DNA of 64,000 nucleotides from a bacterium (lineage in GTDB: Bacteria > Patescibacteriota > Minisyncoccia > Portnoybacterales > GWB1-42-6). The translations under genes and the position numbers were made by a program. The DNA lies in the NCBI GenBank assembly GCA_043800535.1, contig JAZDMV010000023.1, positions 27,264 through 91,263 on the forward strand. The letters run 5' to 3'. The stretch's first letter is position 1. The number at the start of each line of letters is the position of its first letter. Below are positions 43,790-48,424 of the stretch, one piece after another. The notes beneath the pieces are model-generated. The model was not told the origin of the DNA, did no database searches, and saw only the letters and a list, made by a program, of their open reading frames with translations.

Positions 43790-44191
43790 TCAATCTATTT
43801 TCTCTTGTTTTAAAATCTTTAAGAATCTTTCCTCCAGTATCCAAACGGCGCCCAGCGCCGCCTTGCCGTGATGTTCTTCAAATTTTTCCAATATGATCTG
43901 ACCCATTCTCTCGTTCATGGTGAATGATGACATTTGAGGTCCGGTTCGTAACAGACAGCCAGCACCCCTAAAAAGAACGTCTTCAAACTCGCCACAATAC
44001 GGAAATCTGCTTGATGGCAAAATCCCGAAAGTCCACTCTCCAAAATCATCAGAAAATTCTTTTGCCAAACGACTAAAGATAGTGTAGACAGATCTTTCCG
44101 TAATTATTCTTGAACCTCCCTGAAAAAATAGAGCCATAACCGCAAGCATTATCTCGGCACCGGGAATTTTATTACCATCTTTGCCTCTCAT
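43790..44191 (-). CDS. Hypothetical protein of 133 aa, the last gene of the ATPase operon.
   Basis: ORF 62 nt downstream of the ATPase gene on the same strand. Confidence 0.4.
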   Translation of the reverse strand: MRGKDGNKIPGAEIMLAVMALFFQGGSRIITERSVYTIFSRLAKEFSDDFGEWTFGILPSSRFPYCGEFEDVLFRGAGCLLRTGPQMSSFTMNERMGQIILEKFEEHHGKAALGAVWILEERFLKILKQEKID

Positions 44192-44253
44192 ATTTACCCT
44201 CCTTCCACCAAATTTTCAAGAACAACTTTTTATATATTTTTTCCTGGCATATC

Positions 44254-46068
44254 TTATAATTTTACCGCTTCTCCTTCATTCAAAGCGCCTCCATTCCCAT
44301 TTTCTTCTTTCTTTATCTCTGGCTCTTTCTCTTTCTCCTCCTCGGTTCTATCTCCCAAAACCTCGCTTAACGTTTCGCGAAGTTCGCTTAAATTGACCTC
44401 TTTCTTTTTCCGCCTCATATCAGAAAACTTTGACGGCTCTTTTTTTGCCGCCTCGGCTAAAGAAACCGGCGCGCCCGTGTCTTTTATTAAAACTTCGCCC
44501 GAAGCGCTTGGATTTGACGGCCGCCTCGGCGGGTTAGAATTTTGCGCAAAATTATCCCGTCTTGGAAAATCGCCATGCGGCTGCGGCGTCCCTTTTTGCT
44601 CCTGCGAACGCACCTGAGCCAAACAATCCTGACAATAGACGGGCCTGACGCCGTCGGGCTTAAATTTCAAGCGGATTTTTTTGCCACAGCTACTGCAAAC
44701 CGCATCAAACGAGGGCTCTTCTGGATGAAATTCTGCCTTGTGCGCCGGCGAAATTTCGTGGCTCAAGACCATTTTTCCTTCTTTCTCACTTTCTATCACT
44801 CCGCTCCACTTGGCAATTTTTTCTTCAACTTCCTGGCGGCTCGTGCTGTAGCGTTCCCTAGAGACACGAATTATTGTTTCGCGGTGTGAAATTTCCGGCG
44901 GTGCGATCGGCGGCAGAGTCGTGGCGGAAAAGGGCCGCGAAGCAATGCCGTCTATCATTAATTTCAGATATATCTGGGCAAATCCTAAATTAACAAGGTC
45001 ATTAGCCGAAAACTCGGGCATAAATTCTTTTTCAAGAAATTCAGCATCAGTCGCGCCGACCCGAAAAGTAAGCATGCTCCCCACGTTCCCAAAAACCGCA
45101 TCAGCCACCGGTTCAACCATCTGCGTTATATACTGATGCGCCAAAACCAGATCAAGACGGTATTTCCTGGCTTCTGACAAGATCGCGGCAAAAGATTCTG
45201 TGGCAAAATTCTGAAATTCGTCAACGTAAAGATAAAAATCCTTGCGCTCTTCCTCGGGAACATCAATACGCGACATGGCGGCTAATTGCAGCCGAGTAAT
45301 CAGCATTGCGCCCAGCAGCGCCGAATTATCCTCGCCAATGCGGCCTTTGGACAAATTCATTATAAGAATTTTTTGCGAATCCATCGCCTCTCTGATATTG
45401 ATGGATGACGTTGTCTGGCCGACGATATTACGAATTAATGGACTTGTCAAAAACTGACCTACTTTATTTTGAATAGGCGCCACTGCTTCGGCCATGAATC
45501 TGTCCGGATATTTTGCAAATTCATCAACCCAAAATGCCTTAACAACCGGGTCAGCAATTTTTTCCACCACTTTTTTCCGGTATTCTTTATCGACTAAAAT
45601 TCGCATCGTTCCAAGAAGGGTTGAGCCGGGGTATTCAAGAAGCGCTAAAATCGCGTTGCGCAAAACGTATTCCAGCCGCGGCCCCCAGGATTCGGCCCAC
45701 AACTTTTTAAAAACGCCGACCAGGCCAGAGGCGACAAGGTGCCTGTGTCCAGGGTCAACTTTTTCAATGACATTAAAAGCTATCGGAAAATCGAGGTCCG
45801 CCGGATTAAAATATATGACATCATTCAATCTGTTTGACGGAATAAAATCAAGCATCTTCTCGGCAAATTCGCCGTGCGGGTCCACTATCCCGATCCCTTT
45901 GCCCGACTGGATATCCTGAATTGCCATATTTTCCAAAAGCGTAGTTTTGCCCATGCCAGTTTTACCAATAACATAAAAATGGCGGCGGCGATCGGCCGTT
46001 TTTATTCCGAATTTTACCCGCTGGTCGCGGAAATTCGTTTCAGCAAAAAATGTGATATCGTCAGCCAT
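44254..46068 (-). CDS. P-loop ATPase of the FtsK/HerA/VirB4/VirD4 (AAA_10/TrwB-like) family with a C-terminal CxxC-x17-CxxC zinc ribbon and a disordered acidic tail.
   Basis: KTADRRRHFYVIGKTGMGKTTL Walker A, and IVDPHGEF. It is a clear paralog of the ATPase half of 1..2167. Zinc ribbon: CSSCGKKIRLKFKPDGVRPVYCQDC. Confidence 0.75.
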   Translation of the reverse strand: MADDITFFAETNFRDQRVKFGIKTADRRRHFYVIGKTGMGKTTLLENMAIQDIQSGKGIGIVDPHGEFAEKMLDFIPSNRLNDVIYFNPADLDFPIAFNVIEKVDPGHRHLVASGLVGVFKKLWAESWGPRLEYVLRNAILALLEYPGSTLLGTMRILVDKEYRKKVVEKIADPVVKAFWVDEFAKYPDRFMAEAVAPIQNKVGQFLTSPLIRNIVGQTTSSINIREAMDSQKILIMNLSKGRIGEDNSALLGAMLITRLQLAAMSRIDVPEEERKDFYLYVDEFQNFATESFAAILSEARKYRLDLVLAHQYITQMVEPVADAVFGNVGSMLTFRVGATDAEFLEKEFMPEFSANDLVNLGFAQIYLKLMIDGIASRPFSATTLPPIAPPEISHRETIIRVSRERYSTSRQEVEEKIAKWSGVIESEKEGKMVLSHEISPAHKAEFHPEEPSFDAVCSSCGKKIRLKFKPDGVRPVYCQDCLAQVRSQEQKGTPQPHGDFPRRDNFAQNSNPPRRPSNPSASGEVLIKDTGAPVSLAEAAKKEPSKFSDMRRKKKEVNLSELRETLSEVLGDRTEEEKEKEPEIKKEENGNGGALNEGEAVKL

Positions 46069-47314: not shown

Positions 47315-47359
47315 TCCTTGTAATAGACACTGTTAAAGATCCTGATTGGATTTAAAATT

Positions 47360-48424
47360 TTATACTAGCGCGTAACGGCCGTCCTCCAATTTTTTGAAGG
47401 CCTTTTTGTTCTGCAAATTTATAAGGATGGTATTTTCTTTTATCTGGCGCTTGGCCAAAACATTCTTTACAACCTCTCCTTTGGCCATCGGCCCTTTCTC
47501 TTTGATTATATCACGGATAACATCAACAACGGTACCGGGCGCATATCCCCATTCGGCCAAAGCATAAATCCCGCGGCCGATAAGAACAAACCGCGGGTCT
47601 TTTATGAGCTCGTTGTGAACCGTCTGCACATAAGCCGGCTTATTCTGCGGCAATTGTTCATTGATCTGATTGGTAACTTCTGAAAAATGAAACGGCTGGC
47701 CGGCTTTTTTGAATACTAAATAGGCCTTGTCGCGCACGCCACGCGGAGAAATTTCCGGCCAGACAACCAATCCGAATTCGCCAAAACGATTTTGGTCTAT
47801 GATCTTGGAAGCATCAATATAAGAAAAAGTCGCCTTGTCAGAAATATTCGGCAACTTGCTTTTAACAACTCTATAAAGCTCCTCGTCTTTTAAAACCTTG
47901 GGATTCTTATCAAAATATCTGACAGCCGAGTCCACTGCCCGTTCCGCCTTTTGAATGGCACTGCTGTTAACCGCCCAGAATGTATGAAATTCATCAGTTT
48001 CAGGATAACGGCTAAACCGCTCTCCCAGGGTCAAAACAAGATTAAGTGCCGCTTTGCACAAGCTAAGTTCTGCTTCGGCTTTTTTCTGTAATTCAGCTAT
48101 CTGACTCGCAGGAAAACAATAACAGACCAAGTCGTCAAACGCCCTGTCTTCACGCCGCAACTCGCCGTACTGCTTAAAATAATCGTGAATTTCATCTTCA
48201 AGAGGCCGTACCTTTTCGCGCACGCCCGGCTGCAATAAATAATCAAGGCCGTTCTTCTCGATCTGCCGCACTCTCTCTCTTGTTATGTTATACTGGTCCC
48301 CGATTTCCTGAAGCGTTTGCGGAGTTCCGTTTTCAAGACCAAAACGCCGCCTGACCACATCCTGTGTCCGGCGGTTGTCTATTCCGCTAATAAGTTCTGA
48401 TATCAAATAATAAGGATTTTCCAT
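47360..48424 (-). CDS. Sigma-70 region-4-like HTH domain fused to a ~280-aa domain of unknown function. It is the first gene of the ATPase operon.
   Basis: [46 protein letters not shown] matches the sigma-70 r4 / LuxR-like HTH pattern. The upstream sequence has TTGACA-17-TATCTT. Confidence 0.55.
   Translation of the reverse strand: [354 protein letters not shown]

Follow-up and report, generated by a model that had tools for sequence, protein, structure and literature searches.

The crenarchaeal Ced system, found in Sulfolobales, has two paralogous proteins, CedB and CedD, which combine a transmembrane (TM) segment, a domain similar to the N-terminal domain (NTD) of VirB4 and an ATPase, and which are needed for DNA import (PMC11868833). 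In Patescibacteria a survey has found 5,713 VirD4-type homologues in 2,918 of 3,035 genomes; 148 of them lie near virB4, a gene present in 2,417 genomes. The survey noted the presence of thousands of 'orphan' coupling-protein homologues in the phylum and left their role open (PMC12102498). Here we describe a locus of the same phylum, Locus B, in which a membrane protein, an ATPase and a protein with DNA-binding domains are encoded side by side. It is found in a stretch of 64 kb from the chromosome of a Portnoybacteria-like species. We will call the whole stretch the window, and all coordinates are window positions. At one end of it there is a second locus, Locus A, where the membrane domain and the ATPase form a single open reading frame (ORF). 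The features of both loci are the following, with protein lengths in amino acids (aa):

47360-48424, minus strand: g354, 354 aa, with Sigma70_r4 and HARE-HTH domains
46139-47314, minus strand: g391, 391 aa, DUF8128 (PF26449), single TM helix
46069-46138, minus strand: spacer between g391 and g604, 70 nucleotides (nt), with a long imperfect hairpin
44254-46068, minus strand: g604, 604 aa, cytoplasmic ATPase of the VirB4/type IV coupling protein (T4CP)/HerA clade
44623-44697, minus strand: zinc ribbon of g604, aa 458-482, a CxxC-x17-CxxC treble-clef, accessory module
43790-44191, minus strand: g133, 133 aa, lineage-restricted ORF
1-2167, minus strand: Locus A, fused paralogue (TM helix, DUF8128 and ATPase in one ORF), cut by the window edge at 722 aa

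We propose that Locus B would be the split form of an ancient motor, fixed in the chromosome of Patescibacteria and belonging to the VirB4/T4CP branch of the FtsK-HerA ATPases. The protein g391 would contribute the anchor, a single TM helix, and on the cytoplasmic side a domain folded like the NTD of VirB4. Its partner g604 would provide a catalytically intact P-loop motor with an all-alpha insertion, to which a zinc ribbon and a disordered tail are added in about half of the lineages. Together they would restore the architecture of Locus A, in which TM helix, NTD and ATPase make up a single chain. VirB4, TrwB and CedB/CedD suggest, by analogy, that the two proteins would assemble as a membrane-bound ring. 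At the cytoplasmic membrane this ring would spend ATP in moving a polymer, which would most likely be DNA or RNA, independently of the canonical type IV secretion system (T4SS) of Patescibacteria. A conserved third component, g354, would be a partner of the motor which binds nucleic acid or RNA polymerase, or else its dedicated regulator. We give a probability of about 0.55 to the whole statement: a split motor of the VirB4/T4CP lineage which moves nucleic acid independently of a T4SS and has g354 as its partner. Its identity and architecture, taken by themselves, are very likely. The function as a nucleic-acid translocase is suggested by analogy and is tentative, with slightly less than an even chance. 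We infer the ring, its substrate, the direction of transport and the roles of g354 and of the hairpin before the ATPase gene; what we can show, and describe in what follows, is the homology, the fold, the paralogy, the split point, the intact catalytic motifs and the conserved gene order.

The membrane component g391 has one N-terminal TM helix, at aa ~17-38, followed by RR, so that the body of the protein is predicted to be cytoplasmic. After the helix there is a domain of ~340 aa, which ends in a conserved linker motif, EELAxLYHFP...P..LP. We have found 718 homologues at E≤1e-3, all of them with the label PF26449 (DUF8128); they are named 'hypothetical proteins' of Candidatus Portnoybacteria and other Parcubacteria. 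This precomputed label is present on all close homologues of g391 and also on the complete Locus A protein, P0121. We have assigned g391 to DUF8128 through the labelled protein P0001, with which it is 90% identical, and not by a direct profile score: neither g391 nor g133 matched anything in the Pfam and NCBIfam model sets used, which did not return PF26449. No paper mentioning DUF8128 was found in our literature search.

A confident AlphaFold2 model of g391, made from 41 family members, has a predicted local distance difference test (pLDDT) of 84 and a predicted template modelling score (pTM) of 0.81. It has a long N-terminal helix followed by an alpha/beta domain. When this model is compared with known structures by Foldseek, 13 TrwK/VirB4 chains rank first, with E-values between 3e-6 and 1e-4 and probability 1.0; one of the 13 is a partial chain of 457 residues. 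There is no other P-loop protein among the matches, which leads us to place the match on the NTD of VirB4, a fold that would otherwise be exclusive to VirB4 in the PDB. DUF8128 has, by this comparison, a VirB4-type NTD. Only the fold comparison worked: by sequence, either with a single sequence or with a profile, DUF8128 gave nothing meaningful in the PDB. A previous reading of this DNA, made without database searches (the sequence-only reading), had raised the question of a kinship with VirB4; it is borne out for this domain by fold and not by sequence.

The ATPase g604 opens directly with a soluble motor and lacks on its chain a two-TM N-terminal domain. Its Walker A is GKTGMGKT, at aa 35-42, and its Walker B is YVDEF, with the DE pair at aa 283-284. 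An all-alpha insertion is predicted between these two motifs, and after the motor come a linker, the zinc ribbon and a disordered tail. In Pfam it matches TrwB_AAD_bind over aa 25-337 (E 2e-11, 44 bits against a cut-off of 20.5), as well as DUF87 (E 8e-8) and TraG-D_C (E 2e-5). It has the nucleotide-binding domain of the T4CPs, with Walker A, Walker B and their signature. Among the proteins of the PDB, phmmer finds TrwB (E 6e-5), and a profile of 30 ATPase members finds TrwB (E 1.8e-7) and DotL (E 7e-5). No VirB4 chain appears with this profile at E≤1: the motor is not recognisable as VirB4 by sequence. The best NCBIfam matches are TraD, CedD and VirD4-like models, far under their cut-offs and mostly limited to the Walker A region. 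Among the invariant columns of the family are those of Walker A, the DE pair of Walker B, R301/K302 and Q312, and because of them g604 looks catalytically active.

In the model of the fused paralogue, with a pLDDT of 79.5, an insertion of six helices is predicted at aa ~487-601, between Walker A and Walker B. When folds are compared, 358 of the 420 residues of a TrwB chain are aligned, and the scores are as follows:

VirB4 C-terminal domain (CTD; 4AG5): 27.3
TrwB: 26.4
DndH C-domain: 26.0
HerA: 24.3
DotL: 22.3
Cag-beta: 20.2
FtsK: 15.9

By its modelled fold the motor appears as a member of the VirB4/T4CP/HerA group, in which it is not assignable to any single member. The family is a hybrid: its NTD and its architecture are of VirB4 type, and the sequence of its motor is like that of coupling proteins.

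The zinc ribbon, CSSCGKKIRLKFKPDGVRPVYCQDC, occupies aa 458-482 of g604, and two ribbon models match over aa 454-487, zf_Tbcl_2 (E 3e-11) and TIGR04272 (E 2.6e-11). Of 62 complete ATPase orthologues 33 have it, which makes it an optional module. The tail which follows it is of mixed charge, with 23 D/E and 22 K/R. It had been described as acidic, which is true for its last ~50 aa, net acidic, and not for the tail as a whole.

The relationship of both loci is apparent when the proteins of Locus B are compared with the window by tblastn. Positions 1966-1028 match g391 (26% identity over 349 aa, E 2e-20) and positions 997-2 match g604 (46.5% identity, E 2e-95). Both matches share the same frame within one ORF, which has its ATG at 2167 and continues beyond the window edge. 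The full protein is found in the database as P0121: 100% identical, 869 aa long, with the NCBI name 'DUF87 domain-containing protein'. Its domains are PF26449 and PF01935; it lacks the zinc ribbon, and its C-terminal tail is rich in Pro and Ala. The split point in Locus B falls exactly on the linker between the N-domain and the ATPase, as g604 starts at the segment which in Locus A comes after EELAxLYHFP...P..LP. Both halves also fit on a single profile of 824 positions, phrog_5156: g391 on positions 27-204 and g604 on positions 396-815. The sequence-only reading had presented Locus B as a split paralogue of Locus A, with g391 homologous to the N-terminal half of the fusion, and had named a chance alignment or ATPases of different families as grounds for giving up the idea. 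We find neither. The paralogy is real, because the alignment goes far beyond chance and the ATPases of both loci, which match the same phrog_5156, belong to one family. In relatives both paralogues are found together on the same contigs.

The genomic context of Locus A beyond the left edge of the window was read from orthologous loci, as no contig was found for the exact P0121 sequence. Its conserved neighbours are small genes of unknown function upstream, PMT_2 glycosyltransferases, serS and dnaX. In the window there are three small ORFs of 130, 104 and 75 aa just upstream of the Locus A gene and in the same direction (2441-3398, minus strand); in relatives two small genes are also found upstream of the fused gene, one of them labelled DUF5663. 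These small ORFs are possible partners of the fused motor. The 909-aa ORF at 54662-57391 was also considered as Locus A and was rejected, as it is SecA.

The protein g354 starts with a housekeeping-type sigma-70 region 4 (aa ~8-76), continues with a central helical part and has a HARE-HTH winged helix. The first of these domains had already been noticed in the sequence-only reading, and the searches agree with it: aa 18-61 match Pfam Sigma70_r4 (E 8e-13), and the profile of the g354 family matches region 4 of SigA/RpoD in the PDB over aa 7-76 (E 4e-16). The residues TRERVRQIE are invariant across the family; the -35 recognition helix is kept. The HARE-HTH domain (PF05066) had been missed. It is found at aa 232-292 (E 4e-6, 27.6 bits against a cut-off of 25.9). 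The delta-subunit model TIGR04567 gives 26.8 bits, under its cut-off of 42: judging from these scores g354 carries a HARE-HTH domain but is no delta-subunit equivalog. We did not find any match to regions 2 or 3 of sigma-70 in Pfam, in NCBIfam or with the family profile against the PDB. All sigma-factor models score far under their cut-offs, and region 4 alone matches (aa 8-78). Because regions 2 and 3 are lacking, we classify g354 on its domains as a sigma4-domain protein and not as a sigma factor. Its homologues, with a length of about 355 aa, are counted in thousands, and their source names are 'sigma factor-like HTH DNA-binding protein' or 'RNAP delta subunit'. Nothing relevant to a combination of HARE-HTH and sigma domains was found in the literature search. 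Sigma region 4 and the N-domain of the delta subunit are kinds of domain otherwise found in proteins associated with RNA polymerase. The role of g354 could be to target the motor to DNA, to regulate the operon or to fulfil a general transcription function, the gene being held in this place by synteny; 'regulator', as it was called before, is only a label.

The same genes are present in many other species. A pattern scan with one genome per species has given at least 588 genomes with a relative, and we have fetched 80 loci. They come from metagenome-assembled genomes named Portnoy-, Moranii-, Lipton-, Terry-, Niyogi-, Kerfeld-, Uhr-, Magasanik- and Nealsonbacteria, Minisyncoccales and others. 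When the window proteins are compared with these loci by tblastn, a strongly conserved order is apparent, secD-secF-g354-DUF8128-ATPase, often with efp and mnmA next. In 65 of 73 testable loci the gene directly upstream of DUF8128 is a g354 homologue, so that the sigma4 protein does recur beside such genes in other genomes, a point which the sequence-only reading had left to be checked. The ATPase lies directly downstream of DUF8128 in 60 of 68, all three genes are present in 52 of 62, and secF is upstream in 47 of 66. The median identity to the window proteins is 62% for the ATPase, 34% for DUF8128 and 37% for g354. The gap between DUF8128 and the ATPase is short, with a median of 15.5 nt, which is consistent with a single operon. 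A third subtype of DUF8128, longer than the others (474-523 aa), is found in three loci, L048, L077 and L080, at about 4700-7500 in each; it has a g354-like gene before it and a glycosyltransferase-like gene after it, in the place of the ATPase. In these three loci the pairing of g354 with DUF8128 persists without an adjacent motor.

The neighbours of both loci in the window are housekeeping genes: ddl, serS, a class II aminoacyl-tRNA synthetase, penicillin-binding protein (PBP) 2, mreC, two copies of mreB, rseP, holB, murA, alaS, mnmA, efp, secDF and secA. The G+C content is uniform along the window. There are no T4SS components, no relaxase and no integrase or other mobile-element marker in the 64 kb, and VirB3, VirB6 and VirB8 are absent both from the window and from the gene-called flanks of the related loci. 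Among 2.9 million viral contigs only one weak relative was found. The conserved order, the housekeeping neighbours and this single viral relative argue for an ancient core function, vertically inherited, and not for a mobile element.

The four ORFs of Locus B are all on the minus strand and span 43790-48424, as the sequence-only reading had described them. The peptide motifs, the CxxC-x17-CxxC ribbon, the 70-nt gap and the palindrome which it quoted are also found in the sequence. Two further features delimit the locus:

48442-48470, minus strand: promoter-like site, TTGACA-17-TATCTT with an extended -10 TG, 18 nt 5' of the g354 ATG
43750-43785, strand not assigned: GC-rich hairpin, an inverted repeat with 16-nt arms of 88% complementarity and T-runs on either side

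The promoter-like site has 10 of 12 consensus matches and is the joint best of the region in a consensus scan; it is a consensus match alone, and the number of sites scanned out equals the expectation from shuffled sequences. It is likely to be the start of a g354-g391-g604(-g133) transcript. The hairpin sits between the convergent g133 and efp genes, and from its sequence it is likely to be a bidirectional terminator which closes the operon; it is absent from the output of a terminator scan of the region. The genes g354, g391 and g604 probably form one operon, which would begin at the promoter-like site (48470) and end at the hairpin (43750-43785). The fourth ORF, g133, is probably co-transcribed here, yet it is outside the conserved module.

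The spacer before the ATPase gene contains a perfect inverted repeat of 9 bp, ATTTAAGAA-N11-TTCTTAAAT, at 46096-46124, which has no match in 100 shuffles. The window has 108 pairs of inverted repeats of at least 9 nt within 40 nt, so that a 9-bp repeat alone is unremarkable. This one is the core of an imperfect palindrome at 46074-46132, with arms of 26 nt (46074-46099 and 46107-46132), the second longest in the window. As RNA the spacer folds with -19.1 kcal/mol (z = -4.0), and none of 200 shuffles folds as well; the 3' arm of the hairpin stops a few nt short of the g604 ATG. In the relative with 90% identity the hairpin is retained with its left arm moved (z -3.9), and in a relative with 66% identity it is gone. 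In most loci the gap between DUF8128 and the ATPase is under 40 nt. Where it is 40 nt or more, hairpins with z below -2 are found in 12 of 19 cases, with sequences unrelated to the palindrome of Locus B; control spacers between g354 and DUF8128 have strong hairpins in 15 of 34. The repeat described in the sequence-only reading does exist in the 70-nt gap, and what falls is its interpretation as a conserved operator: it is kept solely in the 90%-identical relative, and elsewhere the spacer is absent or unrelated. We read it as a local element at the RNA level or as a palindromic insertion. This lineage-specific hairpin, placed between two cistrons just before the ATPase start codon, might tune the translation of the ATPase or the processing of the messenger.

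A similar inverted repeat is found in front of another gene of the window:

57405-57440, minus strand: GATTTAAGAG-N15-ATTCTTAATTC, directly upstream of the secA start codon (57391)

It has a half-site in common with the palindrome of Locus B, and its fold is marginally stable (z -2.3). The pattern TTAAGA-N-TCTTAA would be expected 0.12 times in the window and is found four times, with two overlapping copies at Locus B. Both palindromes could be a shared regulatory or RNA element which links secA with the ATPase gene, or a coincidence in AT-rich spacers.

Several of our observations weigh against the split nucleic-acid motor that we propose. The pTM of the fused-paralogue model is 0.55, so that the relative orientation of its domains is uncertain. 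Half of the orthologues do without the zinc ribbon. In five loci g354 is missing from its place and secF adjoins DUF8128 directly, and five or more loci have no adjacent ATPase (L048, L077, L080, L063, L081). The synteny also takes in genes with unrelated housekeeping functions, secDF, efp and mnmA, and the adjacency of g354 could be a frozen gene order rather than a functional link. The DNA or RNA substrate is proposed by analogy and from the DNA-binding domains of the neighbouring g354. Moreover, in Southlakia epibionticum a coupling-protein homologue is not essential for epibiotic growth and may be exapted (PMC12102498). The VirD4-type homologues of that survey may be the DUF8128-ATPase family; about two of them per genome fits the two loci described here. 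The VirB4 profile search of the same survey found about one VirB4 per genome and therefore evidently missed this family.

The same data bear on other explanations. The motor might be the type IV coupling protein of a Patescibacteria T4SS of the mating-pair formation (MPF)-FATA-like type, encoded elsewhere; it would bring substrates to the channel of that system for host interaction, with g354 as an accessory which recognises the substrate or DNA. TrwB and DotL are its closest solved relatives by sequence, the NCBI name of the orthologues is 'type IV secretory system conjugative DNA transfer family protein', and coupling-protein genes are often far from virB4 (PMC12102498). The disordered C-terminal tail is also reminiscent of TraD, in which the tail binds a partner. 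However, the family has a VirB4-type N-domain of its own instead of a two-TM domain, and no T4SS or relaxase genes were found nearby. The VirD4-type homologues are present in more genomes than virB4 (2,918 and 2,417), about two in each, and in Southlakia the T4SS genes are essential while the homologue is not (PMC12102498). We consider this coupling-protein explanation unlikely. We see no indication of the role in cell-cell or host interaction linked to a T4SS which had been suggested in the sequence-only reading: the window is free of T4SS genes, and such homologues are rarely near virB4 (PMC12102498).

A motor of the chromosome itself, similar to FtsK and acting in segregation or in the clearance of DNA from the division site, would also be a membrane-anchored ATPase of the FtsK-HerA superfamily encoded in the core genome. 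The winged-helix/HTH partner kept beside it, g354, would read the DNA sequence as the winged-helix gamma domain does in FtsK; the window holds mreB, mreC, a PBP and an ftsA-like gene, and the SPO1 homologue lies near a gene annotated 'partition protein'. The FtsK_SpoIIIE motor signature with a gamma winged-helix domain, by which FtsK/SpoIIIE proteins are defined, was not found, and we take this explanation as very unlikely. It is highly improbable that the ATPase serves in protein export or envelope biogenesis in a functional tie with the Sec machinery: efp, mnmA and alaS are equally in synteny without any link to secretion, the palindrome is lineage-specific and the secA hairpin marginal, and we know of no member of the VirB4/T4CP clade which works with Sec. 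Finally, the locus might be a relic of a mobile element, a prophage or a defence system, made of a HerA/mad8-like ATPase and a sigma-like protein of MzaA type. PADLOC gives matches to mad8 (E 2e-13) and to HerA models, and of g354 to the MzaA sigma domain; fused homologues are also found in SPO1-like and G-type Bacillus phages. These matches are limited to generic P-loop or sigma4 segments, and the reading as a defence system was rejected by synteny: the locus has a fixed position among housekeeping genes in many lineages of Patescibacteria, with a median ATPase identity of 62%. The absence of integrase, relaxase and other mobile-element markers, the even G+C and the single weak relative in the viral contigs make a relic hardly credible.

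Other features of the window are more peripheral. The ORF g133 has no homologue in the 80 loci at E≤1e-5 and no family match in profile searches; among 1.84 billion representatives it is found in three clusters including its own. As a component of the system it was rejected: it is a near-orphan between the ATPase and the terminator-like hairpin. Of the four-gene locus described in the sequence-only reading the four ORFs do exist, and the conserved genes are three, with g133, known from just two other 50%-identity clusters, left outside. It has a weak similarity (E 0.002) to a parvulin-type 'LAKEFSDDPG' segment beside or within secD of other Patescibacteria. A second weak similarity, obtained in a small database (E 4e-6) and not with the family hidden Markov model, involves residues ~105-195 of one DUF8128. 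Two full-length mreB paralogues are present at 16490-17542 and 24927-25940, together with an ftsA-like gene at 35869-37128, which is notable given the reduced genomes of this group. The mnmA ORF has 506 aa here and ~363 aa in a relative, and the alignments to relatives begin near residue 52-69. A GC-rich palindromic element of the GCCCCGCAC/GTGCGGGGC type is found at 41270-41289, 51216-51244 and 7641-7665: two copies are intergenic and one is inside the mnmA ORF. This suggests in-frame insertions or a mis-called start codon. There are also perfect inverted repeats at 40406-40447, just 3' of mnmA, and at 58947-58984, with 20 and 18 nt respectively and a 2-nt loop each, both among the longest palindromes of the window. 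They may be terminators or repeat elements.

Patescibacteria live on other cells and are unable to make nucleotides. It has been proposed that they feed on host RNA (preprint 10.64898/2026.06.21.733656). A wider picture would be that of a machine for nucleic-acid translocation present throughout the phylum, independent of T4SS and made of two paralogous hybrid motors with a VirB4-type N-domain and an ATPase of coupling-protein type. One of these motors is fused; the split one has in addition a zinc ribbon and a DNA-reading sigma4/HARE-HTH partner. The machine would be a bacterial counterpart of CedB/CedD, and the family an evolutionary intermediate between VirB4 and coupling proteins. If this were true, the machine could be the missing inner-membrane motor of these auxotrophic epibionts, with which they would take up DNA or RNA from the host or hand it over; as a whole we find it quite unlikely. 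Databases already contain the genes and the DUF, and 'orphan T4CPs' are a published phenomenon. In the literature which we searched there is no description of the VirB4-NTD identity of DUF8128, of the fused/split pair or of the conserved three-gene module. If the homologues of the survey are the same family, they would acquire a VirB4-type N-domain, an ancient fused/split pair and a core-genome module with the sigma4/HARE-HTH protein. A vague annotation would become a defined machine with three components, which can be tested in tractable systems of the Saccharibacteria type. DUF8128 gains a structural identity, and the family has a bearing on the divergence of VirB4 and coupling proteins.

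A comparison with the known systems shows what is particular to this family. VirB4 itself, as known from TrwK of plasmid R388 (PDB 7O42/8RTD) and from the CTD of Thermoanaerobacter pseudethanolicus (4AG5), has no detectable sequence similarity with it. In contrast with VirB4, there are no VirB3, VirB6 or VirB8 genes beside Locus B, the family brings its own TM helix, just one, and the domains are divided between two proteins in Locus B. The coupling proteins TrwB, VirD4, TraD and DotL are the best sequence matches of the motor, with TraG-D_C as a weak match. They have in common with it a disordered C-terminal tail, and the all-alpha insertion predicted for our motor between its Walker motifs may be a further likeness. 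They differ in their two-TM N-terminal domain, which is replaced here by a TM helix and the VirB4-NTD-like DUF8128: one helix, placed on g391 or at the start of the fused protein, serves as anchor and is followed by the domain of ~340 aa. Furthermore, this motor has no relaxase or T4SS nearby, it is a core chromosomal gene in two paralogues, and a zinc ribbon is added.

The same fused architecture of DUF8128 and ATPase is found in gp27.4 of phage SPO1 and gp156 of Bacillus phage G (phrog_5156). Their identity is 22-24%, and the tblastn matches cover 83-91% of Locus A; the DUF8128 profile recognises both gp156 (E 1.5e-17) and gp27.4 (E 3e-4). Unlike Locus A, neither has an evident N-terminal TM helix in its first 120 residues. 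The SPO1 gene adjoins one annotated 'replication initiation by nicking' and is downstream of one annotated 'partition protein', and the gene of phage G adjoins one annotated VirB-like. These neighbours, as annotated by the depositors, point to DNA handling.

The crenarchaeal proteins CedB and CedD are also a chromosomal paralogous pair, with a TM segment, a VirB4-NTD-like domain and an FtsK-HerA ATPase, outside the classical conjugative T4SS. In their case the match to the VirB4 NTD is divided, as CedB and CedD correspond to different parts of it; here one DUF8128 is aligned over 256 residues. Locus B has no genes similar to the CedA channel or to the Ups pilus. The match of g604 to the NCBIfam CedD model (E 5.5e-8) is limited to the Walker A region, with 31.9 bits against a cut-off of 600, and the CedB model gives 14.7 bits against 700, so that neither reaches the level of an equivalog. 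The likeness is one of architecture and does not imply orthology; as such, CedB/CedD are the closest analogy and precedent for the motor of Locus B.

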